A DNA stretch of 64,000 nt from an uncultured Acidobacteriota bacterium (GTDB lineage Bacteria > Acidobacteriota > Thermoanaerobaculia > UBA5066 > Gp7-AA6): positions 145,554-209,553 of the forward strand of contig CAVPRN010000001.1 of assembly GCA_963707935.1 (NCBI GenBank). The letters are read 5' to 3'. The stretch's first letter is position 1. Each line of letters starts with the position of its first letter. This document shows, in pieces, positions 29,387 through 50,142 of the stretch. The translations under genes and the position numbers were made by a program. The notes beneath the pieces were generated by a model. That model did no database searches and was not told the DNA's origin. It saw nothing but the letters and a program-made list of their open reading frames with translations.

Positions 29387-29413
29387 TCGACCTCCTGAAA
29401 GCGCGCCGATTCT

Positions 29414-31143: not shown

Positions 31144-33858
31144 TCAGCGCGCCGGGCGCGCCGTATTTCCGAGCGACATCAGCCAGAGCGACGAGCCGCC
31201 GTTTTGGCGGCAATAGTAGAGATATCGGCCGTCGGGCGAGATGGCCGGCTCCTCCAGAAAGAGGCCCGCTTCGGGAAAGCGCGTGACGGGCTCGAGCGGC
31301 CCGCCCTCGGCCGGCACCCGGCCGATGTTGCGATGGCTCGGCTGGATGTAGATCCACTTTCCGTCGGGCGAGTAGAACGGATGCCGCATCCGCTCGAACC
31401 CGGTCGTCAGCTGCTGCATCGGCCCCCCCGCGGCGGGCATGCGGAAGAGCTGCAGCACTCCGTCCTGGATCGCCACGATCGCGATCCATCGTCCGTCCGG
31501 CGACCAGACCGCGTCGAACTTGTCGCCCGGGGTATGGGTCACGACCGTTCGCGTCCGCGGCACGATGTCGAGCCGCGTGAGCTGCTGAGACCCGTCGGCG
31601 ACTACGTCGGCGATCAGGACCGAGCGCCCGTCCGGAGAGGGACGGACGCTGATCGCGCCCCGGCTGCTCCCTCGAAAGAGCTCCTCGGCGCGACTGCCGT
31701 CCGGGGCCGCGATCCAGGTCGCTTCCTGCCCGGTCATGTATCGAACGACCAGGATCTCCTGGCCCCCGGGGATCCACGCCGGCGACGCCTGCGCCGTGTC
31801 CTCGCCCGGCAGTTGAAGGCGCTGGCGACCCCGGGTCGCGAGGTCCAGGATCCAGACTTCGCGGTGCCCGAGCGTATCGCTGACGACGGCGACCCGCTTC
31901 CCGTCGGGGGACACGTCGGGATAACTGTCGATGATGCGTCCCGTCGAGAGGGGCTCCTCGGGGCCGGCCGGAGCCCCTCCCCCCGGTGCGAGCGGCAGCC
32001 GCGTCAGGTTGAGCGAGGATTCTTCCTCCGCCACGACGATGCGCGTCGCGTCGCGCGAGACGGCGAGGTCGTTGAGGTACGCCGTCGAAAGATTGACCAT
32101 CTGCGGTCCGTGCGCGGCCGGATGTCCGTCCGTCGAGAGCGGCGTGACTTCGATCCGCGTCCCTCCCTCGGGATCGCGTTCGAGGGACCAGATCCGGGGC
32201 GAAGCATCCCAGGCGTGGCTGAATCCCGGGAGGATCTCGCGGGGCTTTCCCCCCTGGGCGGGCATCAGAAAGATCCTTTCCAGCTGGCTCTCGAAACTGA
32301 TCCAGCGCCCGTCCGGCGAGCATCCGATCGTGACGATCTCCCACGTGGACTGCTCGCTCGGGAGAACGGCGCGAGGAGCGCCGCCCTGGGCCGGCACCTC
32401 CATGATGGCGCGGCGGTTCTCCGGGCCCGTCACGAAGAGAACCGCCCGACCGTCCGGACGCCAGGCGGGATAGTTCGCATCGGAGGCGAGCCGATGCGGT
32501 GCGCCGCCCAGCGACGGAACGACCCACAGGTCTCCTCCGTAGGTCCGGCTGTTGCGGGAGAGCGTCCCGCCGACTTTGATCAGGCCGGTCTTCGAAGCGC
32601 GCGTCGAAACGAAGGCGAGGGAGCCGCCGTCCGGTGAGAACGCCGGCTGAACGTCCTGACCCGGATCGTTCGTGACGTTGACGTCCTGCCCCCCTTCGCT
32701 GCGGCGAACGTAGATCTCGAAGTTGCCGCTGCGGTCCGAGGCGTAGGCGAGAAGACTTCCGTCGGGAGACCAGGTCGGCCACTGCGAGTGCGCGGTCGCG
32801 GGCGTGATCCGGACGAGCCGCGTGATCTGGGGAGCGCGCGGGGCGGCGCCGCGGGGCGTCAGAACCCACGTGGCGAGCGCGGCGAGCGCCGCCGAGCCGA
32901 AGGCGAGCGCGAGAATTCTCCACGGCGGCGCGCGTCGGGCGGGCGAGGCGGGCGCTTCCGAACGCGTCGTTTCCGTCGCCGCCGGCTCCGCGGCCGCCTC
33001 CTCGATCTCGATGCGCGCGTCGGCGATGTCGTGCAGGCGCTTCTCCGGGTCCTTCCGCAGGCAGCGACGCAGCAGGTCCCGGACGCGGGCCGGCGTCGCC
33101 GGCGGAAGGGCCGCCCAGTCCGGCTCGCGCGTCAGGACCGATACCATGATGTCGGACACCGTCTCCCCGTCGAAAGCCCGCCGCCCGGTCAGGCACTCGT
33201 ACAGGACGCACCCGAACGACCAGATGTCCGAGCGCCGGTCCACCGCCTTGCCGCGCGCCTGCTCCGGCGACATGTACGCCGCCGTGCCCAGGATGACGCC
33301 TCCCCTGGTACCGCCCGAGGTGACCGTCGGCGAATGCGATATGTCTCGCCCCGCGGCGCCTTCCGCCCCGAACGCCTTGGCGAGCCCGAAGTCGAGGACC
33401 TTGACCTTCCCGGCAGGCGTCACCTTGACGTTGGCGGGCTTGAGATCCCGATGGACGATCCCCTTCTCGTGCGCGGCTTCGAGCGCTTCGGCGATCTGCC
33501 GGCAGACGCCGAGGGCTTCCTCGGGCGGCAGGGGTCCCGCGGCGAGCCGCTCGGCGAGGGTCTCGCCGTCCACGAGCTCGAGGACGAGCAGCCGGGTCCC
33601 GTCAGAATCCTCGAGGCCGTAGATCGACGCGATGCCGGCGTGGTTCAGCGAGGCGAGCGTCTTGGCCTCGCGGTCGAATCGCGCCAGCCGCTCGGGATCG
33701 CGGGAAAATTCCTCGGGCAGCGCCTTGATGGCGACCTCGCGGCCGAGCTTCGCGTCGCGGGCCCGCCAGACCTGCCCCATGCCTCCGGCTCCCAGGGGAG
33801 AAAGGACCTCGTAGGGTCCGAACCGGCTGCCCGCGCCGAGCGCCATCCGATCCTCCAA
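31144..33858 (-). CDS. K1: Ser/Thr protein kinase - TM - TolB/PD40 beta-propeller receptor
   Basis: GAGGMGQVW, VAIKAL, HRDLKPANV, DFGLAK and YMSPEQ. TM helix ILALAFGSAALAALATWVL. The C-terminal half has repeated WSPDG/SPDG blades. Confidence 0.9.
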   Translation of the reverse strand: MEDRMALGAGSRFGPYEVLSPLGAGGMGQVWRARDAKLGREVAIKALPEEFSRDPERLARFDREAKTLASLNHAGIASIYGLEDSDGTRLLVLELVDGETLAERLAAGPLPPEEALGVCRQIAEALEAAHEKGIVHRDLKPANVKVTPAGKVKVLDFGLAKAFGAEGAAGRDISHSPTVTSGGTRGGVILGTAAYMSPEQARGKAVDRRSDIWSFGCVLYECLTGRRAFDGETVSDIMVSVLTREPDWAALPPATPARVRDLLRRCLRKDPEKRLHDIADARIEIEEAAAEPAATETTRSEAPASPARRAPPWRILALAFGSAALAALATWVLTPRGAAPRAPQITRLVRITPATAHSQWPTWSPDGSLLAYASDRSGNFEIYVRRSEGGQDVNVTNDPGQDVQPAFSPDGGSLAFVSTRASKTGLIKVGGTLSRNSRTYGGDLWVVPSLGGAPHRLASDANYPAWRPDGRAVLFVTGPENRRAIMEVPAQGGAPRAVLPSEQSTWEIVTIGCSPDGRWISFESQLERIFLMPAQGGKPREILPGFSHAWDASPRIWSLERDPEGGTRIEVTPLSTDGHPAAHGPQMVNLSTAYLNDLAVSRDATRIVVAEEESSLNLTRLPLAPGGGAPAGPEEPLSTGRIIDSYPDVSPDGKRVAVVSDTLGHREVWILDLATRGRQRLQLPGEDTAQASPAWIPGGQEILVVRYMTGQEATWIAAPDGSRAEELFRGSSRGAISVRPSPDGRSVLIADVVADGSQQLTRLDIVPRTRTVVTHTPGDKFDAVWSPDGRWIAIVAIQDGVLQLFRMPAAGGPMQQLTTGFERMRHPFYSPDGKWIYIQPSHRNIGRVPAEGGPLEPVTRFPEAGLFLEEPAISPDGRYLYYCRQNGGSSLWLMSLGNTARPAR

Positions 33859-34519: not shown

Positions 34520-34912
34520 CTACACCTGCCCCGCCGCGAGCTTGTCCACGAGGACGAGCCCGGCCTCGCAGATCGCGAGCGGCCGCGTCTGCGCCCGCAC
34601 CTGCACGACGATCTTGATCGTCGGAACGCCGTCCCGGTCCGAGAAGAACCCGAAGAAGACGACCCAGTCGGACCCGTCGCGGATCTCCCGAAACTCGAAG
34701 CGCCTCCGGAACCGCTCCAGCACGTCGTTCGCCGCGGCGTCGTCCGTCGAATAGCGCTTCAAGGGCTTCCAGGCTCCCGGCCCGTCGGGAAGCCCCGCCC
34801 CTTTGGACACCAGCCCCTCCGGAGTCTCTCTCACGACCAATCCGAAGACCGTGCGCGCGACGAGCGTGTCCGTCTCGGAGCCGGGCTTCAAAGCGCCGAC
34901 GCGCTCGGGCAT
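34520..34912 (-). CDS. Hypothetical protein (phage ABA-sandwich-domain-like)
   Basis: 130 aa. TDTLVARTVFGL...WKPLKRYSTDDAAANDVLERF resembles the LD.LVAEKVMGW...YSTDIAAAWEVVEK pattern of ABA-sandwich proteins. Weak, from memory. Confidence 0.4.
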   Translation of the reverse strand: MPERVGALKPGSETDTLVARTVFGLVVRETPEGLVSKGAGLPDGPGAWKPLKRYSTDDAAANDVLERFRRRFEFREIRDGSDWVVFFGFFSDRDGVPTIKIVVQVRAQTRPLAICEAGLVLVDKLAAGQV

Positions 34913-34991
34913 CAGGAGGCCTTCCGGGGCATCGGTTCATTGTAGCGGCCGAGCCGGCGCGGTCACGGCCGGCGAAACGGACCGGTCGGGC

Positions 34992-37610
34992 CTACTTTCG
35001 CGCGGCGGCCTCGCCCGGCTTCCAGTTGAGAAGGACGCGGAAGAGCTCCGAGTCGAAGTCGCGGGTCGGCACGACCATGAGGAAGCGCTGGCCGTCGGCC
35101 GAAACGACGTACTGGCGCGACGGGTTGTTGAGCCTCAGAGAGGCCTGGAACAGGGGCTGCGGAGCGCCCGAGGAGAACGTCGATCCGGCCGAGACCGGGA
35201 CCGCCATGAGGCGTCCGTCGAGCGCCGCGTAGAAGATCTCCTTCCCGTCGCGGCTCCAGATGGGCTGCAGCCCGCCCCCGTTCGAGATCGCCCATTTCTC
35301 GTCGGTCATCGGAAAACGCCGCACGAAGATCTCGTACTGCCCTGGCTCCGACGAGCTGTAGGTGAACCAGCGCGCGTCGGGCGAGAAGCCGGGAGAGCGC
35401 TCCTCGTACTCCGACGCGAGGAGAGGCTGCGGCCGGCGATCCCCCGAAAGTGGGACCACACCGATGTCCGTGTGGCCCCTCGTCACCGTGTAGAGAAGGA
35501 GGCGGCCGTCGGCCGAGACATCGTACGGAGTCGCGAAGTTGTCCGCGACGAGCGTCTCCTCGCGGCCGTCCCGCAACGACTTGCGCCGAAGCTCGAAGGC
35601 TTTCCCCTCAAAGCGGAACAGGATGCTACCGCCGTCCGGACTCCAGACCGGCATCCACGCCGCCTCCGCAAAGGGTGTCGCCACATTACTCTCGAGGTCG
35701 AGCGTCCAGACGCTCTGGCTGCCGGTCTCCACCTGTCGCAGCGTCATCGCCGCCATGCGGTCGTCCCAGGAGAGGCCCACGTTCATGATCACGCCGGCCG
35801 GCCCGACGGACTTGACGGCCGCTCCCCGCCGGTCCATCCAGACGAGCTGCCGCTCGGCGCTCCCCGGCCGGAACACGACGATCCCGGTGCGCGAGACGGA
35901 AAAGAGGTCCCGATAGGCGGAGACGTCCGCGCGCATCACCGGACGAGTCACCGATTGCGGATCGCCGCGAAGCTCGGCCCGTACCGGATCGAAGCGCTGC
36001 GCCAGAAGCGCCTCGCCCCGGACAAACAGCAGGATGTCGGGGGGGAGAAACAGTCCCGCGGCCCCGTTTCGCAGGAGCAGCTTTCGGCCGGGCGCGCCGA
36101 GCGAAGCCAGGTAGATTCCGGTCGCCTCCGCCTTCTCCGCCTTCACGAAGAAGAGGAATCGGCGCCCCTCGAGGAGCATCTGCGGCCAGCGGTGGATGAC
36201 GTCTCCCGGCTCGAGCCGCGTCGCCGGCTCGGGCTGCCCTCCCGACGCCGCGATGCGGTAGATCGATCCGACGGACTTCTGGGTGAAGAGCAGGTCGCCC
36301 TTCGATCCCCAGCTTCCGCCGCGGCCGAGCTCGGCGTCGCAGAGGACGTCGATGGAGCCGGTCGAGAGCTCGATGCGCCGGAGCTTCCCTCGAGAGTAGA
36401 AGGCGAGAAAGCGTCCGTCGGGAGACCAGAAGGGAGACTCCGCGGTCTCGGTTCCCGAGAGAGCCCGGGCGTCGTCGGATCCGAGGTCCCGGATTCGGAG
36501 CATCGACTTCCCCTCCGCGATGCCAACGAAGGCGAGCCTCCGCCCGTCCGGCGAGATCTCGAAGGAGTCCGTGAGCACGGTCCGCTGCGGGGGAACGATC
36601 GACAGGAGCATGGGCTCGGAAGACGCGGCCGCCGGCGGGCGCGGCCGGCTCAAGAGCGCGGCGGCGGCGAGGAGTGTTGCGAGAGCCGCCACCGCCCAGG
36701 GCAGCCAAGGGAGGCGCCCGCGCGGCGGAGTCGAGGGCACGACGCCGGATTGCGACCCTTCCGTGACCCAGCGCAGCTCCCGCCTGACGTCCGCGGCGCT
36801 CTGCCAGCGCTCCTCCGGGTCCTTGGCGAGACAGGTCTTGACGATCCGATCGAACGCCGGAGGCGTCATCGGCGCGACCGCGGAGATCGGCGCCGGCTCC
36901 GTGTGGAGTATCGCCCCGATCAGAGACGCCTGGGTCGCCCCCGAGAAGGCCTTCTGCCCCGTCGCCATCTCGTAGAGCGTCGCGCCGAGCGCGAAGATGT
37001 CCGTTCGCGGGTCGGCCTCTTTTCCCTCGAGCTGCTCGGGCGCCATGTACTGGAACGTCCCGAGGATCGTGCCCTCCTGCGTCAGCCCCTGCTGCGTCGG
37101 AAGCGACGTCAGGCTCCCCCTCGCCTTCGGACCCTCGAACCCCTTCGCCAGACCGAAGTCCAGCAGCTTCACCCCCGACTTGGTCAGCATCACGTTGCCA
37201 GGCTTCAGGTCCCGGTGCACGATCCCCTGCCGGTGCGCCTTGTCCAGAGCGTCAGCGATCTGCTGCCCGTAGCGCAGGGTCTGGTCGAGCGGCAACGCTC
37301 CCTTCGCGAGACGCTCCGTCAGCGTCTCGCCTTCCAGGAGCTCCATGACGAGGTACTCGACATCGCCCTCGCGCCCGACGTCGTAGAGCGCGCAGATGTG
37401 CGGGTGCGAGAGCTGCGAGATCATCTTCGCCTCGCGCTCGAAACGCTGGCGGACCTCGGGAGAGGAGGACACACCCGACGGAAGAACCTTCACTGCAACC
37501 GTGCGGTCCAGCCGGGTGTCCCGGGCGCGGTAGACTTCCCCCATGCCTCCCGCTCCGAGCGGCGACTGGACCTCGTAAGGGCCGAGCTTCGTTCCAGCCG
37601 CGAGCGCCAT
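34992..37610 (-). CDS. K2: Ser/Thr protein kinase - TM - TolB/PD40 beta-propeller receptor
   Basis: GAGGMGEVY, VAVKVL, HRDLKPGNVMLT, DFGLAK, GTFQYMAPEQ. TM helix LPWAVAALATLLAAAALL. PD40-type blades. The ATG directly abuts the K3 stop. Confidence 0.92.
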   Translation of the reverse strand: MALAAGTKLGPYEVQSPLGAGGMGEVYRARDTRLDRTVAVKVLPSGVSSSPEVRQRFEREAKMISQLSHPHICALYDVGREGDVEYLVMELLEGETLTERLAKGALPLDQTLRYGQQIADALDKAHRQGIVHRDLKPGNVMLTKSGVKLLDFGLAKGFEGPKARGSLTSLPTQQGLTQEGTILGTFQYMAPEQLEGKEADPRTDIFALGATLYEMATGQKAFSGATQASLIGAILHTEPAPISAVAPMTPPAFDRIVKTCLAKDPEERWQSAADVRRELRWVTEGSQSGVVPSTPPRGRLPWLPWAVAALATLLAAAALLSRPRPPAAASSEPMLLSIVPPQRTVLTDSFEISPDGRRLAFVGIAEGKSMLRIRDLGSDDARALSGTETAESPFWSPDGRFLAFYSRGKLRRIELSTGSIDVLCDAELGRGGSWGSKGDLLFTQKSVGSIYRIAASGGQPEPATRLEPGDVIHRWPQMLLEGRRFLFFVKAEKAEATGIYLASLGAPGRKLLLRNGAAGLFLPPDILLFVRGEALLAQRFDPVRAELRGDPQSVTRPVMRADVSAYRDLFSVSRTGIVVFRPGSAERQLVWMDRRGAAVKSVGPAGVIMNVGLSWDDRMAAMTLRQVETGSQSVWTLDLESNVATPFAEAAWMPVWSPDGGSILFRFEGKAFELRRKSLRDGREETLVADNFATPYDVSADGRLLLYTVTRGHTDIGVVPLSGDRRPQPLLASEYEERSPGFSPDARWFTYSSSEPGQYEIFVRRFPMTDEKWAISNGGGLQPIWSRDGKEIFYAALDGRLMAVPVSAGSTFSSGAPQPLFQASLRLNNPSRQYVVSADGQRFLMVVPTRDFDSELFRVLLNWKPGEAAARK

Positions 37611-40277
37611 CTACTTCTTCAACTCCGCCGTCCAGTTCAGTACGACAGTCAGCGGCGGCGAGGTCACCTCGCCGACGTCGGTGTTGACGAGGAATCGTTG
37701 GCCGTCGGCGGAGACGTCGTAGCTGAACAGGTCGGCGGTGGCGACGTGCTCCCGCCGCCGGACCTGAAAGAGAGATCTCGCCACACTCGCTTCGAATGTC
37801 GAGCCTGTCTTCACGTCGACCGCCATCACCTTTCCATCGGGATCACGGTAAAAGAGCTCTTTTCCGTCCCGCCGCCACCTCGGCTCGGAACCTCCGGTGC
37901 TGGAGACCTTCCAGTTGCCGCCCGGCGCCGGAAACGGAGCGACAAAGACTTCCCACCTCCCCGACTCGTTCGAAGCGTACGCCACCCACCGCCCGTCCGG
38001 AGAGAACTGTCCCTGGTCCACGCCGAAGGCCCCCTTCAGATACGGTGTCGGCCTCCGGTCGCTGTCGACCGGCACCGCAAACAGCTCGAGGTTCGTCTTC
38101 GCGTCGAAGGCCCGATAGAGAATGAATCGCCCGTCCGGCGACCAGTCGGTCAGGTACTTGGATCTGTCCGATTCGTGGATCGCCTCCTCGCTCCCGGAGC
38201 CGCGCGAGCTCTTCTGAAAGGTGTCGGCATGCCCCCTGCGGAGCGACATGAAAGCGATCCGGCTTCCGTCGGGCGACCAGACCGCCTGGGCGTCGTATGC
38301 CGGATCGGACGTCAATCGCGTGGGGATGCCGCCGGCGGATTCGTAGATCCAGACGTCGTTGTTCCCCGTCTGAGGATCGTTGATGTCCACGGCGACCCTC
38401 TTCCCGTCGGGCGAGATGCGCGGGTTGGACTGGTCGGCCGGGGTACCGAGAGAGCCGATCGGCGCGCCGCCGCGGTCGAACCAGACGAGCTGCCCGACGC
38501 CCGCGGGCGATCGAGGCTGATAGAGGAGCACGCCGCTCTCGGACACCGCGAACAGCGTGTTGTAGTTCTGAGGAAAGTACTGGATCTGCTCGGTGACGGA
38601 CACACGATCACCCATGATCCGAGCTCTCTTCCAGTCGAAGGGTTGCGCGAGCAACGTCCTATCGCGAGCGAACAGGAGATATCCGGGAGGCGCGTAGGCC
38701 ACTCTCGAGTTGGCGCCTACGAGAAATGTCTCCTCTTTCGAATCGAGCGACCCGACGTAGACACCGATTTTCTCCTTCCGCCCGCCGAAACTTGCTACGA
38801 CATAGAGGAAGCGCCGGCCGTCCGGCAGGAAGGAAGGCCACCGATGAGAGGACTCGCCTCGCACCGGGTCGAAGCGCGTGAGCGCGGCCGGAGAACCGCC
38901 GGAGGCGGACACGCGGTAGAGCGGGCCATCGGCAGCGGGCGCGAAGACGATGATCCCCTCTCGACCCCAGGCCCCGCCTCGGTTTGCCGGCGCGTCGCAA
39001 AGCGTCTGGGCAGGTCCGCCCGAGGCGTCGATCTTCTTGAGCTTTCCGTCCGCGAAGAAGGCGATGGAGCGGCTGTCGGGCGACCAGAAGGGGAAGGAAG
39101 GATTCTCGGTGCCTGGAAGCTCCTGCACGGAAAGCGAATCCAACGGCCGGATCCAGAGCCGATTCTTGCCAGAAGTATCCCTCGCGACGACGACCAGCCG
39201 GCGGCCATCCGGTGAGATGGCGAGGCCCCGCACGGCGGTCTTGTCGGGCAGGACGATGGAGGATCGCATCGGACGCGACAGTTGCGCGGCCCGATCGGCA
39301 GAGCGCTTCGCTGTCACGACGGCCGCCAGGGCTGCGAGACACGCCACCGCCGCCAGGCCCCAGGCGAGCCGCCCGCCGGTTCGGCGGCCGGCAACGACGG
39401 GCGCCGCCATCCCGGCTTGCGCGCCTTCGCCGATCCAGCGCAGCTCCCGTTTCAGATCGCTCGCGGACTGCCATCGCTCCTCGGGGTCCTTGGCGAGGCA
39501 GGTCTTCACGACACGGTCGAGTGCGGGCGGCGCGGTGGCTCGCACGGTTGAGATCGGCGCCGGCTCGCTCGACATGATCGCCGTGATCAAGGATGCCTGG
39601 CTCGACGCCGAGAAGGCCTTCCTGCCCGTCGCCATCTCGTAGAGCGTCGCGCCGAACGCGAAGATGTCCGTCCGCGGGTCGGCCTCCTTCCCCTCCAGCT
39701 GCTCGGGCGCCATGTACTGGAACGTTCCCAGGATCGTGCCCTCCTGCGTCAAGCCCTGCTGTGTCGGCAGGGCCGTTAGGCTCGACGGCGGCGCGGCCGG
39801 CGCCACCGCCTTGGCCAGCCCGAAGTCCAGCAGCTTCACGCCGGACTTCGTCAGCATCACGTTGCCGGGCTTCAGGTCCCGGTGCACGATCCCCTGCCGG
39901 TGCGCTTTGTCCAGGGCGTCTGCGATCTCGACCCCGCACCGCAGTGTCTGCTCGAGCGGCAACGCTCCCGTGCCCAGACGCTCCGTGAGGGTCTCCCCTT
40001 CCAGGTACTCCATGACCAGGTAGTCGGTCTCGCCTTCACGCCCCACGTCGTAGAGCGCGCAGATGTGAGGATGCGAGAGCTGCGAGATCGTCCGCGCCTC
40101 CCGCTCGAACCGCTGACGGACCTCGGGAGTCGAGGCCATCCCCGACGGAAGCACCTTGATCGCCACCGTGCGATCGAGCCGAGTGTCCCGCGCCCGGTAC
40201 ACCTCGCCCATCCCTCCCGCGCCCAGGGGCGACAGGATCTCGTAGGGGCCGAGACGCGAGCCGGTGGCGAGCGTCAT
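37611..40277 (-). CDS. K3: Ser/Thr protein kinase - TM - TolB/PD40 beta-propeller receptor
   Basis: Same kinase motifs as K2. TM helix AWGLAAVACLAALAAVV. Blades with SPDG+/WSPDG. Ends ...VVLNWTAELKK. Confidence 0.92.
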   Translation of the reverse strand: MTLATGSRLGPYEILSPLGAGGMGEVYRARDTRLDRTVAIKVLPSGMASTPEVRQRFEREARTISQLSHPHICALYDVGREGETDYLVMEYLEGETLTERLGTGALPLEQTLRCGVEIADALDKAHRQGIVHRDLKPGNVMLTKSGVKLLDFGLAKAVAPAAPPSSLTALPTQQGLTQEGTILGTFQYMAPEQLEGKEADPRTDIFAFGATLYEMATGRKAFSASSQASLITAIMSSEPAPISTVRATAPPALDRVVKTCLAKDPEERWQSASDLKRELRWIGEGAQAGMAAPVVAGRRTGGRLAWGLAAVACLAALAAVVTAKRSADRAAQLSRPMRSSIVLPDKTAVRGLAISPDGRRLVVVARDTSGKNRLWIRPLDSLSVQELPGTENPSFPFWSPDSRSIAFFADGKLKKIDASGGPAQTLCDAPANRGGAWGREGIIVFAPAADGPLYRVSASGGSPAALTRFDPVRGESSHRWPSFLPDGRRFLYVVASFGGRKEKIGVYVGSLDSKEETFLVGANSRVAYAPPGYLLFARDRTLLAQPFDWKRARIMGDRVSVTEQIQYFPQNYNTLFAVSESGVLLYQPRSPAGVGQLVWFDRGGAPIGSLGTPADQSNPRISPDGKRVAVDINDPQTGNNDVWIYESAGGIPTRLTSDPAYDAQAVWSPDGSRIAFMSLRRGHADTFQKSSRGSGSEEAIHESDRSKYLTDWSPDGRFILYRAFDAKTNLELFAVPVDSDRRPTPYLKGAFGVDQGQFSPDGRWVAYASNESGRWEVFVAPFPAPGGNWKVSSTGGSEPRWRRDGKELFYRDPDGKVMAVDVKTGSTFEASVARSLFQVRRREHVATADLFSYDVSADGQRFLVNTDVGEVTSPPLTVVLNWTAELKK

Positions 40278-40284
40278 CGGCGTT

Positions 40285-40710
40285 TCACAACGGATCGTGA
40301 ATTCGCAGACCGGGAAAGACGACGAATCCCTTGTCGTGAGTCCAGATTTCGGCTGCCCCGTTGTCGAAGGCGGTCAACGCAATTTGAAGATCGAAGATCC
40401 TCGTCCCCTGGACGCCGAGCTGTCCCGCAACCTGGACGAGGCGGCCGGCAAAGCCGTCACCGGGCCCCCAGACGTGACCCCCGGCCTGCCACAGGGCGCG
40501 GAGGAATTTTCCCGCCTGTTCCGCCGTCGAGGGTCCTCCCACCGAGGCCGGATGCGTTACGACGCTCCAGAACTCGGCCACACTCGGCTGCGTGATTCCC
40601 CAGCCGCGCTCGTCCCGGCTGGCGAGCTCGATCGCCTGCCTGGCGGGGCGGTGTTCCGCGAGCCCCGAGCGGTGAGCGTAGACGAGCAGGTTCGTGTCGA
40701 TCGCGATCAT
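40285..40710 (-). CDS. vapC: PIN-domain toxin (VapC)
   Basis: 141 aa. Has IAIDTNLLVYA (Asp), VAEFWSV (Glu) and IFDLQIALTA...WTHDKGF (Asp residues). 4-nt overlap with the upstream antitoxin. Confidence 0.9.
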   Translation of the reverse strand: MIAIDTNLLVYAHRSGLAEHRPARQAIELASRDERGWGITQPSVAEFWSVVTHPASVGGPSTAEQAGKFLRALWQAGGHVWGPGDGFAGRLVQVAGQLGVQGTRIFDLQIALTAFDNGAAEIWTHDKGFVVFPGLRIHDPL

Positions 40711-40946
40711 CGGTGTCCGGCGAGCCAGTCGTGCATGGCCGCCCGATCGGATATGTCGAGCCCCTGCGGCAGACCTCCCTGCGCCGTGACCCAGTGGATC
40801 GGCCTCCGGCGCACGCGGCCTCCGCCGCGAGACAGCTCCCGGCGCAGGCTCCGCTCGAAGATCTGACGCAGAGTCTCGCGTGATTCCGCGGCCTTCTTCT
40901 TCGCGGCGATCAGAAGATCATCCGGCAGGTCGATCGTCGTCTTCAT
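40707..40946 (-). CDS. vapB: VapB-type antitoxin
   Basis: ATG at 40946 (MKTTIDLPDDLLIAAKKKAAESRETLRQIFERSL...). 79 aa. Typical VapB N-terminus. ATGA overlap with vapC. Confidence 0.8.
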   Translation of the reverse strand: MKTTIDLPDDLLIAAKKKAAESRETLRQIFERSLRRELSRGGGRVRRRPIHWVTAQGGLPQGLDISDRAAMHDWLAGHR

Positions 40947-40975
40947 ATGGGAAACAATATTACCATAAATATGGG
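40947..40975 (-). promoter_or_regulatory. AT-rich -10-like box immediately upstream of vapB (possible leaderless transcript)
   Basis: The minus strand reads CCCATATTTATGGTAATATTGTTTCCCAT-ATG. TAATAT (40962..40957) lies 10 nt before the ATG, which is a striking AT island in GC-rich DNA. Confidence 0.35.
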
Positions 40976-41004: not shown

Positions 41005-41034
41005 GGAGCGCCGGCGAACGACGGTCAGCGTCAT
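41005..41034 (-). pseudogene. Short decayed kinase 5-prime stub overlapping the K4 stop
   Basis: ATGACGCTGACCGTCGTTCGC... begins at 41034 in an ATGA overlap with the K4 TGA. It resembles the K3 5-prime end ATGACGCTCGCCACCGGCTCGCG for about 25 nt only. Confidence 0.35.
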
Positions 41035-43637
41035 CGCATCACCCCTCGCCAATTCAAGAGGACCCGGAATCGCTCGGAGTCGAAATCCCGAGTCGGCACG
41101 ACCATCAGAAACCGCTGCCCATCCGCCGACACCGCGTACTGCAGGCTCACGTTCGTGAGCGTCACGGACGTCCGGAACAGGGGCTGCGGCGGTCCAGCGG
41201 AAAAAGAAGATCCGGTTGTGACCGGCACGGCCATGAGCCTGCCGTCGAGCGCCACGAAGAAGATCTCCTTGCCGTCCCTGCTCCAGAGAGGCTGCTGCCC
41301 GCCCGAATCCGAGATCCGCCACTTTTCGTCCGTCATCGGAAACCGCCTTACGAAGATCTCGGACTGGCCGGTTTCATCCGAGCCGTAAACGAACCATCGG
41401 GCATCCGGTGAGAAGTGCGGCGTGCGCTCGCTGAATTCGGTCGAGAGAAGAAGCTCCGGCTTTGCGTCACTCTGCAGGTCCTTCACTCCGATGTCGAAGT
41501 CGCGCGCCACCCTCGTGTAAAGCATGTAGCGGCCGTCGGAAGAGATGTCGTGAGGCGTGACGAAGCTGTCGACGACAACGATTTGCTCTTCTCTGGAACC
41601 GCCTCGAACGGTCCTCCGGCGGATTTCGTACCGTTCCCCTTCATACCGGTAGAAGACGGTTCCCCCGTCCGGCGCCCAGATCGGCAGGAACGCCGGCTCG
41701 GCAAAGGGCGCCGTCACGCCGCGCTCGATGTCCACCATGCCGATTGCCCGCATGCCCGTCTCCACCGAGAGATAGCTCAACCCGGCGGTCCGGTCGTCGG
41801 GGGAGAGCCTCACGCCCAGGACCTCGCCCACGGAGCCGACCGTCCCGACCGGGTTACCCCGGCGATCGAACCAGGTCAGCCGCCGCTCCGCGCTGTTCGC
41901 CCGAAAGACGAGGATCCTGGAGTCGGAAACGGCGAAGAGGTCGCGGTACGATCCCAGGTCCCCTCGCATGATTGGGCGCGTTATGGTTTGCGGTTGACCC
42001 CCGAGTTCCCCGCGGTCGAGGTCGACGTGCTGCGCGAGGAGCGCCCCGCCTCGAACGAACAGGAGGGAGTCAGGCGGCACGAAAACGCCGGTGCCCGAGT
42101 TGCGAAGCAGGAGCCTGCGGCCGCGCGCGGCCAGGGACGCCATGTAGGTGCCCGTCGTTTCCGCCTTCCCCGTCTTGACGAAGAAGAGAAAGCGCCGGCC
42201 ATCGGGGAGAAACTGGGGCCAGCGATGCAGGAGGTCGCCCTTCTCGAGCTCCGTCACGGGCTCGGCCGGCCCGCCCGAAGCCGGAACGCGGGAAATGACC
42301 CCCACAGCCTTCTGCGTGAAGAGAATGTCGCCGTTCGCTCCCCAGCATCCGCCGCGCCCGAGCTCGGCGTCGGACAGGTTTTCGACCGAGCCCGTCGCCA
42401 GGTCGATCCTCCGGAGCTTGCCCCGCGCCACGAAGCCGAGCGACCGGCCGTCCGGCGACCAGAACACCGTTTCCGCCGAGTCCGTGCCCGCAAGAGTGCG
42501 GACCTCCTCGGAACCGAGCTCGCGGATGCGCAGGAGCGACTTGCCTCCGGAGATGCCGACGAATGCGAGCGTTCGGCCGTCCGGCGAAAGGGCAAAGAAT
42601 TCCGTGAGCACGGTTCGCTCCGGCGGAACGATCGAGAGCTGCATACGCTCCGGGGAAGCAAGAGCGGGGCGCCTTGCGCGAAGGGTGATGTCCGCAGCGA
42701 CCAGGAACGCAAGGGCCAGCGCCGCCCACGACAGCCACGATCGGCGAATCGGCGGGCCGGAAGCGGCGACGCCGGTCTGCGGCCCGTCGGATATCCAGTG
42801 CAATTCCCGTTTGATGTCGGCGGCGCTCTGCCAGCGGTCTTCGGGATCCTTGGCGAGGCAGGTCTTGATCACCCTTTCCAGAGCGGGCGGGTTGGTGGGT
42901 TGGATCGTCGAGATCGGCGCCGGCTCCTCCTTCATGATCGCGGAGATCAGCGACGCCTGGGACGCGCCCGAGAACGCCTTCCGCCCCGTCGCCATCTCGT
43001 AGAGCACCGCGCCGAAGGCGAAGATGTCGGTCCTCGCGTCCGCTTCCTTGCCCTCGAGCTGCTCGGGCGCCATGTACTGGAACGTTCCGAGAATCGTCCC
43101 TTCCTGGGTGAGTCCCTGCTGCGTCGGGAGCGAGGTCAGGGTTCCCTTTCCCTTCGGCCCCTCGAATCCCTTCGCCAGGCCGAAGTCGAGAAGCTTGACC
43201 CCCGTCTTCGTCAGCATGACGTTGCCGGGCTTCAGGTCCCGGTGCACGATCCCCTGCCGGTGCGCCTTGTCCAGAGCCTCGGCGATCTCCTGTCCGTAGC
43301 GCAGCGTCTGCTCGAGCGGCAGGGCGCCTTTGGCCAGACGCTCCGAAAGCGTCTCGCCTTCGAGAAGCTCCATGACCAGGTACTCGGTCTCGCCCTCGCG
43401 GCCGACGTCATAGAGCGCGCAGATGTGCGGATGGGAGAGCTGCGAAATCGTTCTCGCCTCCCGCTCGAAGCGCTGGCGCACTTCGTCGGACGAGGCCATC
43501 GAGGACGGAAGCACCTTGACCGCCACCGTTCGCTCCAGACGCGTGTCCCGAGCCTTGTACACTTCGCCCATTCCCCCGGCGCCGAGAGGCGTGAGGATCT
43601 CGTAGGGCCCGAGGCGCGTGCCGGCCGCGAGCGTCAT
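41031..43637 (-). CDS. K4: Ser/Thr protein kinase - TM - TolB/PD40 beta-propeller receptor
   Basis: I take the start as the ATG at 43637 (MTLAAGTRLGPYEIL), which overlaps the PIN gene stop (ATGA). The track start at 43739 lies inside the PIN gene. Kinase motifs as in K2, to which it is closely related along its whole length. Confidence 0.92.
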   Translation of the reverse strand: MTLAAGTRLGPYEILTPLGAGGMGEVYKARDTRLERTVAVKVLPSSMASSDEVRQRFEREARTISQLSHPHICALYDVGREGETEYLVMELLEGETLSERLAKGALPLEQTLRYGQEIAEALDKAHRQGIVHRDLKPGNVMLTKTGVKLLDFGLAKGFEGPKGKGTLTSLPTQQGLTQEGTILGTFQYMAPEQLEGKEADARTDIFAFGAVLYEMATGRKAFSGASQASLISAIMKEEPAPISTIQPTNPPALERVIKTCLAKDPEDRWQSAADIKRELHWISDGPQTGVAASGPPIRRSWLSWAALALAFLVAADITLRARRPALASPERMQLSIVPPERTVLTEFFALSPDGRTLAFVGISGGKSLLRIRELGSEEVRTLAGTDSAETVFWSPDGRSLGFVARGKLRRIDLATGSVENLSDAELGRGGCWGANGDILFTQKAVGVISRVPASGGPAEPVTELEKGDLLHRWPQFLPDGRRFLFFVKTGKAETTGTYMASLAARGRRLLLRNSGTGVFVPPDSLLFVRGGALLAQHVDLDRGELGGQPQTITRPIMRGDLGSYRDLFAVSDSRILVFRANSAERRLTWFDRRGNPVGTVGSVGEVLGVRLSPDDRTAGLSYLSVETGMRAIGMVDIERGVTAPFAEPAFLPIWAPDGGTVFYRYEGERYEIRRRTVRGGSREEQIVVVDSFVTPHDISSDGRYMLYTRVARDFDIGVKDLQSDAKPELLLSTEFSERTPHFSPDARWFVYGSDETGQSEIFVRRFPMTDEKWRISDSGGQQPLWSRDGKEIFFVALDGRLMAVPVTTGSSFSAGPPQPLFRTSVTLTNVSLQYAVSADGQRFLMVVPTRDFDSERFRVLLNWRGVMR

Positions 43638-44074
43638 GGCCCCTCCGGAGTCCGGACGGCTGGCTCGTCCTCGAGGAACCGCTCGAAAGCCTCGCGATCC
43701 CAGGTCACCAGTGTGGCCGCGCGCGCCTTGCGGGCGCACGCCCCGATGAGAGCGTCATAGACCGCGCCGCCCCCGATCCCGGCGTCCCGGCTGCGGCGCA
43801 AGGTGGCACGATAGTCGCCGGCAGCCAGCGCGACCAGCCGCGTCTGCCCCCAGTTGGCTTCGATCAGCGCCAGGGCGTCGTCGGGACGCAGCCGGTGAGG
43901 CTCGGGGAGCCGCGTCAGGACCGAAAAGGCTTCGGCCAGCGAGTGCGCCGCCAGGACCAGCTCTTCCCCGGCCGCGTCGCGGCGCTCGATCTCGCGGCGG
44001 GTGGCGTCGTGATGACGGTGCCACGTGCACACGGCCGCGACCAGGCAGGTCGTGTCGAGCAGGTACGAGCTCAC
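43634..44074 (-). CDS. vapC: PIN-domain toxin (VapC-like)
   Basis: 146 aa. Has YLLDTTCLVAAV (Asp), SLAEAFSVLTR (Glu) and VYDALIGACA...LVTWDREAF (Asp residues). Overlaps the AbrB-type antitoxin by 4 nt. Confidence 0.85.
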   Translation of the reverse strand: MSSYLLDTTCLVAAVCTWHRHHDATRREIERRDAAGEELVLAAHSLAEAFSVLTRLPEPHRLRPDDALALIEANWGQTRLVALAAGDYRATLRRSRDAGIGGGAVYDALIGACARKARAATLVTWDREAFERFLEDEPAVRTPEGP

Positions 44075-44337
44075 TCGCCCTCGTCCGAGCCTCGCCGGCG
44101 GAGGGAGTCGAGCGTCCGCGCGACCGCCTCCCCGGTCAGGGACGGCACGCGCCTGCGAGGGACGGCAACCGTCAGCGATCCCCGCTTGACGAGCTTCACG
44201 TCGAGCGGCTCGGGCTCGATCTCGATCCGGCCGTCTGTGACTCGAATCGTCAGCGTCGCCCCCGGCCGGATTCCCGCTTCCTCCCGAATCCGTTTGGGCA
44301 CGACGAGCCTCCCGGCCCGGTCAATGGTTGTTTTCAT
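44071..44337 (-). CDS. AbrB/SpoVT/MazE-fold antitoxin
   Basis: 88 aa. MKTTIDRAGRLVVPKRIREEAGIRPGATLTIRVTDGRIEIEP is a swapped-hairpin AbrB-type DNA-binding domain. Confidence 0.85.
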   Translation of the reverse strand: MKTTIDRAGRLVVPKRIREEAGIRPGATLTIRVTDGRIEIEPEPLDVKLVKRGSLTVAVPRRRVPSLTGEAVARTLDSLRRRGSDEGE

Positions 44338-44365
44338 GGTACCGATACTACCATTTCATATGGGT
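44338..44365 (-). promoter_or_regulatory. AT-rich -10-like box / palindrome immediately upstream of the AbrB-type antitoxin (possible leaderless transcript)
   Basis: The minus strand reads CCCATATGAAATGGTAGTATCGGTACC-ATG. TAGTAT (44350..44345) lies 7 nt before the ATG. There is an ATGGTA...TACCAT inverted repeat. The sequence is similar to the vapB upstream box. Confidence 0.35.
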
Positions 44366-44389: not shown

Positions 44390-44465
44390 AAGGTCCTTCC
44401 TCTTCCCCGCGAGAAGCTCTGAGCGGACCGCAGGGGCCGAGGCGCGTGCCCGCGGCCAGCGTCAT
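44390..44465 (-). pseudogene. Decayed kinase 5-prime fragment between K5 and the AbrB/PIN cassette
   Basis: ATGACGCTGGCCGCGGGCACGCGCCTCGGCCCC (MTLAAGTRLGP) starts at 44465 in an ATGA overlap with the K5 stop. Its first 33 nt match the K4 5-prime end at all but 4 positions, and weaker similarity continues for about 40 nt more. No kinase body follows. Confidence 0.55.
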
Positions 44466-47134: not shown

Positions 47135-49864
47135 CTACTTCTTCAGCCCCGCCGTCCAGTTCTGAACGACCGTGATGGCGCTCTGCTCCTCCGGTACGAT
47201 CGTGTTGATCAGGAATCGCTGCCCATCGGCGGATACGTCGTACTGGGACCCGGCGTCGGTCGAACGGATCTGCGTGCGGAAGAGGGGCTTCGGCGCGCCG
47301 ATCTCGAAGGCCGATCCCGCCTGGACCTCGACGGTCATGAGCGTCTTGTCGGGCGCAATGTAGAAGACTTCCCTGCCGTCGCGGCGCCATCTCGGATAGG
47401 AGCCGCCTCCGTTCGAGACCTGCCATTTGCCCGAAGAGCCCTGAAACGGCCGAACGTACACCTCCGGCCTCCCGGACTCGTCCGACGTGTAGGCAATCCA
47501 CCGGCCGTCGGGAGAAAACTGCGGGGACCACTCCTGGAACGGCGTGGCCAGAAAGGGCCTCTCCTTCCGATCTGTGAAGGAGAAGATCCAGAGATCGAGA
47601 CCGGTGTTCGCCTGGGCGGAGTTGGCCTGGAACGCGATGAGTCCGCCGTCCGGCGACCAATCGGTGGGAAACCGGAAAGTCGCCGCCGGGGGCAGCAGGA
47701 GTTCGTCGTCTCCGGACCCCGAGGTCGCCCGCTGATAGATGTTGTGCCTCCCCTTTCGATTCGAAGCGAACGCGATCCGGCCGCCGTCGGGCGACCAGAC
47801 CGGGAAGAGGTTGACGGCGGGCTCGAAAGTGAATCGCGTCGAAACGCGCCGCGGCAGATCGTAGAGCCACAGGTCCAGGAGGGCCGTTTGACCATCGAGC
47901 AGAGCGGACACGACCCGCCGGCCGTCGCGCGAGATGCGAGGGTGAGTGTGGGCGGCGACCTGTCCGATCGACTCGATCGCTTTCCCGGTGCGGTCGAACC
48001 ATTGGAGCCGCGACGGGTCCCCCTGCGCGCCCGTCTGGTAGGCGAGGAGGCCGTTGTCGGAGACGGAGAACGTTCCCGACCCCTGGGCCCCGAAATACAG
48101 GACGTTCTCCGCCACGGGCGCCGCCTCGCCCGTGAACTCCAGCCGCCCGGAGTCGAAAGGCCGCGCGAGAAGCGTCGAGCCGCGCATGAAGAGAAGATGC
48201 CCGCGGGAAAGGCTCGAGGAAGGGGAATACGCGGCGTTCCCCCGCCCGGACTGGAGGAGCTTCACCTCTTTCGAATCGAGCGATCCCACGTAGAGACCGT
48301 TGATTGAATCCGGCCTGGCTTCCGCGCCCAGGAAACCGACGTAGAGGAAGTGGCGGCCGTCCGGCAGGAAGACCGGCCAGACATGCTGGTACTCGCCCCT
48401 GCCCGGGCCCAGGGACGTGACGGCGGCGGCGCCACCGCCCGAAGCGGAGACGCGATAGACCGGATCCTGGAAGGCAGGAACGAAGAGGATCACGCCGTCG
48501 CGACTCCACGTCCCGCCCCGGCCGCTCGGAGCGGCCGCGAGCGTCTGAGGAGGACCTCCCGAGGCCTCGACCCTCTTCAACTTCCCGCCGGCGAAGAAGC
48601 CGATCGAGCGGCTGTCCGGAGACCAGAACGGGCGCGTAGCCCCCTCGGTACCCGGCAGGGCCTGGGCCGAGGCGGAAGCGAACGGCCGGACCCAGAGCCG
48701 TGTCACGCCTTCCGTGGACTCCGCCGTGAAGGCAATTCGGCGGCCGTCCGGAGAGACCGCCGGGGGAGATCCTCGAAAAACGAACTGGTTCTTTTCCGGC
48801 GGAAGGATCGAGGCCTCGAACCGGGCCTGCGGCGCGGGGCGCTGGCGCAGGAGCAGAAACCCCAGCACCAGTGCGGCCGACGCGGCGGCCGCGAAAGCGA
48901 GCAGGGCCAAACGCTCGCGTCCTTTTCGAGGAAGGACATGGGGCACCGGAAGGCCCGCCTCCGATCCTTCCGCGATCCCCTTGAGCTGTTTCCCGACGTC
49001 GCCGGCCGATTGCCAGCGATCTTCCGGGTCCTTGGCGAGGCAGCCTCGGACGACGCGGTCGAGCGACGGCGGCGTCGTGGGCTGCACCTGCGAGATCGAT
49101 TGCGGCTCGTCCCGCAGGATCGCCGATATGAGACTCGCCTGGCTGTTCCCCGAGAACGCCTTCCGCCCCGTCGCCATCTCGTAGAGCGTCGCGCCGAGAG
49201 CGAAGATGTCCGTCCGCGCGTTGGCGTCCCTGCCCTCGAGCTGTTCGGGCGCCATGTACTGGAAGGTGCCGAGGATCGTGCCTTCCTGAGTGAGCCCCTG
49301 CACCGTCGGAAGAGCCGTAAGGCTGTACTTCGCCATGGGATGTTGCCCTGCGGCCGCTTGCTCTCTCCCGGCCGCGTCGAGCGGCCGCTCAAATGTCTTC
49401 GCGAGCCCGAAGTCGAGGAGCTTCACCCCCGACTTCGTCAGCATCACGTTGCCGGGTTTGAGATCCCGGTGCACGATCCCCTGACGGTGTGCCTTGTCCA
49501 GCGCGTCGGCGATCTCCTGGCCGTAGCGCAGCGTTTGTTCGAGCGGCAGCGCTCCCTTCGCCAGACGCTCCGTCAGCGTCTCGCCTTCCAGGAGCTCCAT
49601 GACGAGGTATTCCGTCTCGCCTTCGCGGCCGACGTCGTAGAGCGCGCAGATGTGCGGATGGGAGAGCTGGGAGATCGTCTTCGCCTCGCGTTCGAAGCGC
49701 TGGCGCACCTCCGGGGACGAGGACATCGCGGAGGGGAGCACCTTGATCGCCACCGCGCGATCGAGCCGCGTATCCCGCGCCCTGTAGACTTCCCCCATCC
49801 CTCCCGCGCCCAGAGGCGACTGGATCTCGTAAGGGCCGAGTTTCGTTCCAGCGATGAGCGTCAT
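47135..49864 (-). CDS. K6: Ser/Thr protein kinase - TM - TolB/PD40 beta-propeller receptor (extra insert after DFG)
   Basis: I take the start as the ATG at 49864 (MTLIAGTKLGPYEIQ). The track start at 49933 reads through a REP hairpin. Between DFGLAK and the GTFQYMAPEQ segment there is an insert, FERPLDAAGREQAAAGQHPMAKYS, that is absent from the other paralogs. Confidence 0.9.
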   Translation of the reverse strand: MTLIAGTKLGPYEIQSPLGAGGMGEVYRARDTRLDRAVAIKVLPSAMSSSPEVRQRFEREAKTISQLSHPHICALYDVGREGETEYLVMELLEGETLTERLAKGALPLEQTLRYGQEIADALDKAHRQGIVHRDLKPGNVMLTKSGVKLLDFGLAKTFERPLDAAGREQAAAGQHPMAKYSLTALPTVQGLTQEGTILGTFQYMAPEQLEGRDANARTDIFALGATLYEMATGRKAFSGNSQASLISAILRDEPQSISQVQPTTPPSLDRVVRGCLAKDPEDRWQSAGDVGKQLKGIAEGSEAGLPVPHVLPRKGRERLALLAFAAAASAALVLGFLLLRQRPAPQARFEASILPPEKNQFVFRGSPPAVSPDGRRIAFTAESTEGVTRLWVRPFASASAQALPGTEGATRPFWSPDSRSIGFFAGGKLKRVEASGGPPQTLAAAPSGRGGTWSRDGVILFVPAFQDPVYRVSASGGGAAAVTSLGPGRGEYQHVWPVFLPDGRHFLYVGFLGAEARPDSINGLYVGSLDSKEVKLLQSGRGNAAYSPSSSLSRGHLLFMRGSTLLARPFDSGRLEFTGEAAPVAENVLYFGAQGSGTFSVSDNGLLAYQTGAQGDPSRLQWFDRTGKAIESIGQVAAHTHPRISRDGRRVVSALLDGQTALLDLWLYDLPRRVSTRFTFEPAVNLFPVWSPDGGRIAFASNRKGRHNIYQRATSGSGDDELLLPPAATFRFPTDWSPDGGLIAFQANSAQANTGLDLWIFSFTDRKERPFLATPFQEWSPQFSPDGRWIAYTSDESGRPEVYVRPFQGSSGKWQVSNGGGSYPRWRRDGREVFYIAPDKTLMTVEVQAGSAFEIGAPKPLFRTQIRSTDAGSQYDVSADGQRFLINTIVPEEQSAITVVQNWTAGLKK

Positions 49865-49893
49865 GGTCGTTCGCGGCGCGACCGAATTTCGCG

Positions 49894-49920
49894 GTAGGGG
49901 CGGGGCTTGTCCCCGCCCGC
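49894..49920. repeat. GC-rich hairpin (REP-like), same family as 5171-5197
   Basis: GTAGGGGCGGGGCTTGTCCCCGCCCGC, located 30 nt upstream of the K6 ATG. Confidence 0.5.
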
Positions 49921-49979
49921 GTTCACCGACCAAAAACGACTCGCGCCGCCGAGACTCGTGCCTACCGGGAGCACCCCGA

Positions 49980-50001
49980 CCCTCTCCCCGCGGGGAGAGG
50001 G
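49980..50001. repeat. GC-rich perfect palindrome
   Basis: CCCTCTCCCCGCGGGGAGAGGG, in the 278-nt spacer between DinB and K6. Confidence 0.45.
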
Positions 50002-50142
50002 GAAGACGAGCAACCGAAGGCGACGGGAGAGACCCAGACGGAGTCCAGGCGAGAGTGTCATGCGAGGTACGCCAACCCCGATTCTAGTTCGACGGTCGCG
50101 TCGATCGGGCGGCGCTTCCCCGCGCGGGGGAGCCCGAGCGCG

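Follow-up and report, generated by a model that had tools for sequence, protein, structure and literature searches.

Toxin-antitoxin cassettes directly in front of receptor kinase genes in a tandem kinase array of an uncultured acidobacterium

Why should a toxin-antitoxin (TA) gene pair lie a few nucleotides (nt) in front of genes for receptor protein kinases? The question is raised by 64,000 nt of DNA (hereafter, the window) from an uncultured Acidobacteriota bacterium (Thermoanaerobaculia; UBA5066; Gp7-AA6; assembly GCA_963707935.1, contig CAVPRN010000001.1, positions 145,554-209,553), which has a GC content of 65-73% when followed in 2-kb steps. A previous interpretation of the letters (the sequence-only reading) had described a vapB-vapC pair overlapping by ATGA, a gap of 7 nt to the ATG of a kinase gene (K3), and a K3 stop codon abutting the ATG of a second kinase gene (K2). 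These coordinates are correct. The same interpretation took the four genes for a self-contained antitoxin-toxin-kinase-kinase system, and this has to be given up: they are instead a segment of an array of eight kinase genes, in which a second, unrelated TA cassette stands before a further kinase gene, K4. It had missed that K2 and K3 belong to a tandem set of eight paralogues, that there is a second cassette, and that a copy of a kinase start (a kinase-start stub) lies beside it. We lean, with modest confidence, towards the explanation that such cassettes are carried along with the 5' end of a kinase gene, are pasted into kinase arrays by recombination, supply the kinases with a promoter, and are possibly retained by penalising deletions.

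The array comprises eight co-oriented minus-strand paralogues, K1-K8 (31144-56719), which are receptor Ser/Thr kinases built of a kinase domain, a transmembrane segment and PD40 repeats (Table 1). K2-K8 are 45-69% identical to one another; K1 stands further off. K3 and K2 match Pkinase in Pfam with E values of about 1e-48 to 1e-51, in addition to PD40 repeats. The VAIK, HRD, DFG and APE motifs are intact in all eight paralogues, each of which also has one strongly hydrophobic 19-mer, within residues 301-344, with the PD40 repeats C-terminal to it; from this we infer a cytoplasmic Hanks-type kinase, one transmembrane helix and a PD40 propeller on the outside. Within the kinase domain, K2-K7 have exact stretches of 29-62 nt in common, lengths that suffice for RecA-type recombination. 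At the K3/K2 junction, TAGATG, the K3 stop TAG (37613-37611) runs straight into the K2 ATG (37610), and K6 is joined to K5 by the same TAGATG. The open reading frames (ORFs) of the 64-kb window were scanned for TA modules: two were found, each directly 5' of a kinase gene, and none among the other ORFs scanned. The gaps of the array otherwise hold unrelated small genes (DUF4136, a Phage_ABA_S-domain protein, DinB, an RsbW-like ATPase and LIC_13387).

In the first cassette (TA1), vapB and vapC overlap as ATGA at 40710-40707, and after the vapC stop TGA (40287-40285) come AACGCCG (40284-40278) and the K3 ATG at 40277. We place the start of vapB at ATG 40946, where the alignments of its homologues begin; an alternative ATG at 40982 is unsupported. 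VapB has no match in Pfam or NCBIfam even at E<=10, and its sole match in the PDB is a weak one to M. tuberculosis VapB26 (E=0.26). It is nonetheless 54-78% identical in related loci, and pairs with VapC in every one of them. VapC has 1729 homologues at E<=1e-10, and among 31 of these the acidic residues D5, E46 and D126 never vary and D107 hardly does. The -10-like TAATAT is placed 10 nt 5' of the vapB ATG, and hence the vapB mRNA is predicted to be near-leaderless; the palindrome that overlaps this promoter predicts autoregulation. The motif ACCATAnnTATGGTAATAT is kept 5' of vapB homologues in 11 other loci, where the DNA farther upstream is unrelated. In an identity profile of the window against the VapC relatives, homology begins about 50 nt 5' of vapB; the profile cannot place the right-hand breakpoint, because the 5' ends of the kinase genes are conserved anyway. 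TA1 shares with type II VapBC modules, at the level of sequence, a PIN toxin with its acidic residues, a small overlapping antitoxin upstream, a palindromic operator over the promoter and, as for VapBC at large, membership of a huge and patchy family.

The second cassette (TA2), in front of K4, pairs an AbrB/MazE-type antitoxin with a second PIN toxin, PIN2. The antitoxin and PIN2 genes overlap as GTGA at 44074-44071, and the PIN2 stop overlaps the K4 ATG as ATGA (43637-43634), with a GGAGG 4 nt 5' of that ATG. Inspected by eye, PIN2 has the acidic residues D7, E48, D107 and D125. The -10-like TAGTAT is placed 7 nt 5' of the abrB ATG, for which a leaderless mRNA is predicted, and the inverted repeat that spans it again predicts autoregulation. 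This repeat is kept in five of six relatives and is one base off in the sixth (L086; related loci are given L numbers), and the homology between TA2 relatives at different loci begins roughly at the repeat. Judged by their sequences, both cassettes are type II VapBC-like modules, that of TA1 having an antitoxin without a recognised domain, and they are unrelated to each other, with antitoxins of different families.

Both antitoxins begin with MKTTID (40946-40929 and 44337-44320) despite their different families, and the 30 nt 5' of the two genes are similar (CCCATAT..ATGGTA.TAT). The shared peptide and upstream likeness may reflect chance, a common promoter architecture or an exchanged 5' module.

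Table 1. Positions of the kinase genes, the cassette genes and the elements associated with them in the window (aa, amino acids).
Feature	Position	Strand	Description
K1	31144..33846	-	most divergent member, 31-41% identity over partial alignments; own TAGAAT at -52
K2	34992..37610	-	872 aa; 69% identical to K4
K3	37611..40277	-	888 aa; closest paralogue in the window K5, 61%
Spacer, vapC stop to K3 ATG	40278..40284	-	7 nt, AACGCCG, without a Shine-Dalgarno sequence
vapC, PIN-domain toxin	40285..40710	-	141 aa; Pfam PIN E=1.4e-8; NCBIfam TIGR00028 (VapC family), 76 bits against a cutoff of 73.6
vapB-like antitoxin	40707..40946	-	79 aa (MKTTIDLPDDLL...); ATGA overlap with vapC
TA1 promoter/operator (predicted)	40957..40974	-	palindrome CCATAttTATGG (40974-40963) overlapping -10-like TAATAT (40962-40957)
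K4	41031..43637	-	868 aa from ATG 43637; stop 84 nt upstream of vapB
PIN2, second PIN toxin	43634..44074	-	146 aa; Pfam PIN E=1.8e-12
AbrB/MazE-type antitoxin	44071..44337	-	88 aa; Pfam MazE_antitoxin PF04014 E=1.4e-9; NCBIfam AbrB domain
TA2 promoter/operator (predicted)	44336..44354	-	inverted repeat ATGGTA-N7-TACCAT around -10-like TAGTAT (44350-44345)
Kinase-start stub at K5 stop	44429..44465	-	37-nt duplicate, 86% identical, of the K4 start (nt 1-37)
K5	44462-47134	-	paralogous kinase
K6	47135-49864	-	paralogous kinase
K6-upstream element	49861..50086	-	TAGAAT -10 (50086-50081), then ORF 50061-49861 starting MTLSPGLRLG
K7	50787-53450	-	TAGAAT -10 at -21
K8	54059-56719	-	paralogous kinase

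How did the cassettes come to lie where they do? For TA2, the window itself preserves a trace. The stub at the end of K5 has its own ATG, which overlaps the K5 stop (ATGA) and opens an ORF of 43 codons (44465-44334) whose stop in turn overlaps the antitoxin ATG. Its likeness to the start of K4 is well above chance (11/11 aa by tblastn; a score of 49 in local alignment, where the null reaches 26 at most; repeat family D1), and the junction of K5 with the stub resembles the K3/K2 and K6/K5 junctions. Because a copy of the K4 start stands at the K5 stop, and because that junction looks like the other two, the sequence indicates that TA2, together with a fresh kinase start, was placed into an existing kinase-kinase junction. 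The relative L086 carries the same flanking duplication. Similar remnants, 31-285 nt long, mark junctions of the arrays whether or not a cassette is present (L014, L037, L093, L094 and probably 5' of K6). Their varying length speaks against a fixed recombination site, and site-specific recombination at one point in the kinase start was rejected on this ground. The probable example 5' of K6 is the ORF at 50061-49861, which ends with ATGA on the K6 ATG and contains a perfect 20-nt palindrome, CCTCTCCCCGCGGGGAGAGG (49981-50000). Its DNA does not match the K6 start significantly (score 19; 95th percentile of the null, 20), and it is from its peptide pattern and position that we consider it probably another kinase-start stub, parted from its gene by an insertion of roughly 200 nt.

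Related genomes show the same kind of junction many times over. We scanned one genome per species with a VapC alignment, which gave 80 loci; the closest VapC relatives (L095, L096 and L103) came from a separate protein look-up. A kinase gene starts <=200 nt downstream of the VapC homologue in 8 of 78 species-level loci, where about 0.2 would be expected from the local density of kinase starts. The gaps between VapC stop and kinase include 1 nt (L001), 9 nt (L002), 29 nt (L007) and 0 nt (L014, where only a stub follows). The 7-nt spacing returns, with a different spacer sequence, in the two closest relatives of VapC, L095 (87%) and L096 (79%); the kinase behind it is truncated in L096 (190 aa), and in L095 its resemblance to K3 lasts for about 30 residues, after which it is of a different subfamily. 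In L103 (VapC 72%) the order is kinase, vapBC, kinase, kinase, with a gap of 12 nt. An exact-protein look-up found the VapC protein on no other contig and PIN2 on one further contig (1.6 kb).

PIN2 behaves alike. It has six close relatives (80-91%, on metagenome contigs). In five of them the PIN gene stops at a kinase start or stub or a few nt away, and in the sixth (L082) it overlaps a kinase start from another subfamily. The overlap with the kinase start is kept in five of the six, and in L086 a fragment of a kinase start lies at about +5 nt. The kinases that follow are 32-77% identical to K4, belong to another subfamily (L082) or are reduced to a bare stub (L083, L086). Distant relatives (38-52%) have no kinase downstream in the DNA examined, and four of five of them align only to about residue 133; the C-terminal tail of 13 residues with which PIN2 reaches the kinase start is present in the kinase-adjacent relatives. 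L084 and L085 are 100% identical over a stretch made up of 260 nt of the preceding kinase, the complete cassette and roughly the first 35-40 nt of the following kinase, and they diverge beyond it. These two loci are contigs of one study, and the identical segment is about 1 kb long (L084 1-1000, L085 4475-5475).

Other PIN families also abut kinase genes (L002 and L081, both at -4; L097 and L102). Across cassette families, which comprise the relatives of TA1, those of TA2 and at least three further PIN families in other Acidobacteriota, the spacing from PIN gene to kinase ranges from -4 to +31 nt. L097 has three different TA families before three kinases within 12 kb, and L102 has four TA-type systems, AbiEi/AbiEii included, within one kinase array; it seems that addiction, defence and mobile genes accumulate in such arrays. 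The AbiEi/AbiEii pair is at L102 7961-9393, in an assembly that also holds the closest orthologue of K3, and a Y1-type (IS200-like) transposase gene adjoins another K3 orthologue at L092 5719-6687.

PIN-kinase adjacency, which the sequence-only reading had suggested looking for elsewhere, is therefore not peculiar to this genome and recurs in many. It returns with several cassettes, but not as a fixed set of genes: the kinases behind the cassettes are non-orthologous or truncated, and K3 has homologues of orthologue grade, up to 83% identical, in other assemblies, the closest of which (83%, 79% and 76%) have no TA genes upstream, where an amidohydrolase gene, a gene on the opposite strand or another kinase is found instead.

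A single mechanism could produce this pattern. A cassette would travel attached to some tens of bases from the very start of a kinase gene, and cassette and kinase 5' end would be pasted together before other kinase paralogues, the conserved kinase 5' region offering homology on the right side while the left side would be joined illegitimately. The right junctions of the cassettes are constant and the left junctions vary between loci, which is the pattern expected from joining with homology on one side only. Capture of this kind would explain both this difference between the two sides and the leftover stubs, as well as the downstream kinases that are non-orthologous or truncated. Once inserted, a cassette would provide the promoter from which the kinases behind it are read. 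Recombination between the flanking paralogues would delete the cassette and expose the cell to its toxin, so that deletions would be penalised. This last step is drawn by analogy: in chromosomal integron arrays, promoter-bearing TA cassettes kill cells when excision is too frequent (PMC13108822). Of the three meanings that had been offered for the locus, stabilisation of a recombination-prone tandem array by its TA module is the one that fits best, if by analogy only.

Are the kinases transcribed from the cassettes? On the array strand, strong -10-like hexamers (TAGAAT, TACAAT, TAATAT or TAGTAT) number seven in 26.6 kb (31-57.6 kb), at 33898, 34944, 40962, 44350, 50086, 53471 and 54016 (-). 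All seven lie just 5' of gene starts, those of the RsbW-like gene, K7, the K6 stub region, abrB, vapB, the ABA_S gene and K1. K2, K3, K4 and K5 have no strong hexamer near their starts, and no terminator-like site is predicted at any junction of the array; the packing of TA1, K3 and K2 indeed leaves, as had been pointed out, no space for an intergenic promoter or terminator. Because two of the seven strong hexamers are the cassette promoters and K2-K5 have none, transcripts led by the TA genes, vapB-vapC-K3-K2 and abrB-PIN2-K4, are the simplest reading, and the kinases would then be translated by reinitiation or coupling. Read-through from upstream (K6/K5) possibly enters these units as well. 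The proposal that the kinases are read from an autoregulated TA promoter is thus strengthened by the conserved operator and -10 before vapB and by the lack of a strong hexamer at K3 and K2, and the co-transcription itself stays an inference.

Four of the seven hexamers read (C/G/A)(A/T)TAGAAT, which looks like a local housekeeping -10 and is a possible guide to the transcription units of this genome.

Several points weigh against cassette capture as we have described it, or against transcription of the kinases from the cassettes. First, an insertion scar is demonstrated for TA2 and not for TA1: after the K4 stop, upstream of vapB, local alignment and repeat search find only ATGACGCT(G), 8-9 nt, which is not above chance. 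Second, near-zero spacing in at least five independent PIN families is more than simple insertion would lead one to expect, and coupled expression could have been selected for. The kinases behind these PIN genes all start with ATGA or GTGA. The stop/start overlaps themselves need little selection, because kinase genes that start in this way hold a TGA that catches an upstream frame extended into them; the start codon context is ATGA, ATGG or GTGA in seven of the eight kinases of the window and in most related ones, and ATGA/GTGA starts explain the overlaps partly. Third, the breakpoint between L084 and L085 could be a real recombination or a chimera of metagenome assembly. Fourth, most related loci were found by baiting with TA toxins, so that estimates of how frequent PIN-kinase adjacency is are biased. 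A PIN gene lies directly upstream of 5 of 30 non-bait kinases in this sample, biased in that most of its loci were toxin-found, and of none of nine kinases in the three loci found with a kinase as bait. Fifth, promoters for other sigma factors, such as those of the extracytoplasmic function (ECF) type, may lie inside vapC or PIN2. Finally, the absence of TANNNT 5' of K3 is weak evidence alone, since this pattern is rare in this DNA (0.9 per kb); we dropped it as an argument and used the positions of the strong hexamers instead.

Of the alternatives, the one that survives best, though we think it unlikely, is that cassette and kinase form a dedicated signalling module. The downstream kinase would phosphorylate the adjacent antitoxin or toxin, or the TA promoter would set the kinase dose by antitoxin turnover, and the coupling would be selected. 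Such a module would account for several unrelated PIN families at -4 to +31 nt, all co-oriented with the kinase; yet the antitoxin folds differ (AbrB, RHH_1, PF09957 VapB and one without a family), so that the relation of kinase and substrate would have to evolve repeatedly. It would also account for the 7-nt spacing kept in three VapC relatives despite differing spacer sequence, whereas the same cassette adjoins non-orthologous kinases, the truncated kinase of L096 and bare stubs (L014, L083, L094), and the closest orthologues of K3 are without a cassette. The PIN2 tail found in kinase-adjacent relatives, beyond the point to which most distant ones align, would be in keeping with such a module, but we found no Ser/Thr specific to kinase-linked cassettes, and the Thr of the tail is not conserved. 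Phosphomimetic changes at Ser/Thr phosphorylation sites of M. tuberculosis VapB weaken its binding to VapC and to the promoter (PMC11160731), which speaks for such a module; one clade of VapC relatives, on the other hand, has a hairpin and a predicted TATAAT promoter between toxin and kinase. A bolder form of the idea, which we regard as improbable, is that PIN TA pairs and PD40 kinases are functional units in which a co-transcribed membrane kinase phosphorylates the neighbouring antitoxin or toxin, an extracellular cue switches the VapC RNase, and the array is a bank of signal-gated switches for growth arrest or defence.

It is likewise improbable, in our estimate, that the kinases are transcribed independently, from unrecognised promoters (ECF or non-sigma-70) inside the toxin genes, with the TA transcript ending or being processed earlier and the tight packing reflecting compaction. 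The clade just mentioned speaks for it. In L012, L024, L025, L026 and L075 the toxin and the kinase are separated by about 105 nt that contain a conserved hairpin (GTCG..N..CGAC type) and, 6-7 nt ahead of the kinase GTG, a TATAAT. This points to a promoter of the kinase's own and a leaderless kinase mRNA in these five species; gaps of 7 nt and -4 nt, as in the window, are too small for a terminator, and none is predicted there. Four-base gene overlaps, moreover, are typical of co-transcribed, translationally coupled genes. Our promoter scan of the window covered the sigma-70-type consensus only, and Acidobacteria are known for many ECF sigma factors (PMC3174227); against this, array genes with free upstream DNA show a clear TAGAAT and K2-K5 do not.

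Chance adjacency is very improbable: both classes of gene are abundant in Acidobacteriota (the VapC homologues counted above, and about 8000 kinase homologues at E<=1e-100), but chance would have to yield the eight loci where about 0.2 are expected, the kinase starts or stubs behind all close PIN2 relatives, both TA modules of the window at kinase starts, and three TA families before kinases within 12 kb of L097.

We also considered whether the kinases belong to anti-phage defence. K2, K3 and K4 match many PD-T4-6, mad6 and MkoA models, in the kinase domain only (residues about 5-340). Most Hanks-type kinases can be expected to match anti-phage kinase models, and these matches were left out of account as non-specific. 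The toxins and antitoxins have no match to anti-phage defence models.

How does the arrangement compare with known systems? A canonical VapBC module is bicistronic and self-contained; here, unlike there, the toxin gene ends against or across the start of a large receptor kinase gene without a terminator, and several PIN families do so alike. Three-gene TA operons are known, such as toxin-antitoxin-chaperone (TAC) and mazEF-mazG, in which the third gene is a dedicated partner conserved with the pair. TA1 and TA2 resemble them in that a third cistron is apparently co-transcribed with a type II pair. They differ in that the kinase is interchangeable, sometimes truncated, and has orthologues that occur without the cassette. 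The third gene is not co-inherited with the TA pair (close relatives of the cassette are followed by kinases 32-77% identical to K4, by another subfamily or by stubs, and the K3 orthologues at 76-83% lack TA genes), and for this reason we do not regard the locus as a three-component TA system.

To our knowledge, the kinase genes of M. tuberculosis are not cistrons of TA operons. Control of TA proteins by Ser/Thr kinases is described in that species for VapB27 and VapB46 and for RelK by PknK (PMC11160731, PMC12239584). What is shared is the tie between Hanks-type kinases and type II TA components, VapB among them; the M. tuberculosis link is biochemical, with no gene adjacency described in the abstracts of those articles, while the link here is a genomic one.

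There is also a likeness to the TA cassettes of chromosomal integrons, such as the Vibrio superintegron (PMC13108822), where promoter-bearing TA cassettes are scattered through a long, recombination-prone array. By analogy, the cassettes in the kinase array would be expected to drive downstream genes and to penalise the loss of segments. The units of the present array, however, are full-length paralogous kinase genes; the presumed substrate of recombination is conserved kinase coding sequence, which also forms the flanks, and all array cassettes seen here are co-oriented with the array. Pfam detected no integrase or transposase domain in the window ORFs scanned, with no search aimed at attC sites, and since no integrase was found we do not take the array for an integron.

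In Candidatus Solibacter usitatus, a large acidobacterial genome harbours a large paralogous family of Ser/Thr protein kinases (PMC3174227). A term search of that article turned up no mention of toxins, and 'PIN' only incidentally. The literature that we searched described neither a TA-kinase operon nor PIN-kinase adjacency in Acidobacteria, in agreement with the sequence-only reading, which knew of no described system of this kind.

If cassette capture is the true explanation, TA cassettes can spread and persist without an integrase or mobile element, by attaching themselves to the conserved 5' ends of a large family of paralogues, and in the process receptor kinases come to be transcribed from them. 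This would bear on how TA modules multiply in large soil-bacterial genomes and on how tandem arrays of paralogues avoid collapse. If, instead, the kinases signal to their neighbouring cassettes, the locus would be a genomic counterpart of the link between kinases and VapB in M. tuberculosis, and a tractable case of extracellular control of VapC. Either way, the recurrent PIN-kinase junction is a concrete pattern that can be searched for.

Some further observations concern the window as a whole and the surroundings of the kinase genes. An Rfam scan of the whole window found no RNA family. Two very long ORFs, 27914-33211 (1765 aa) and 34803-39215 (1470 aa), were rejected as high-GC artefacts, since real genes lie across them on the other strand or in a different frame. 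The K2-K1 gap holds genes for a Phage_ABA_S (phage ABA sandwich) protein at 34520-34912 (-) and a DUF4136 protein at 33884-34507 (+). Between K8 and K7 lies a gene for an RsbW-like anti-sigma-factor kinase (HATPase_c_2) at 53507-53986 (-), with its own TAGAAT and Shine-Dalgarno sequence; no gene for an anti-anti-sigma partner was seen beside it. Towards the window edge, 63284-64000 (-) encodes a PD40 C-terminal segment 37% identical to the propeller of K4; a ninth kinase paralogue may end here, with about 6 kb of unrelated genes between it and the array.

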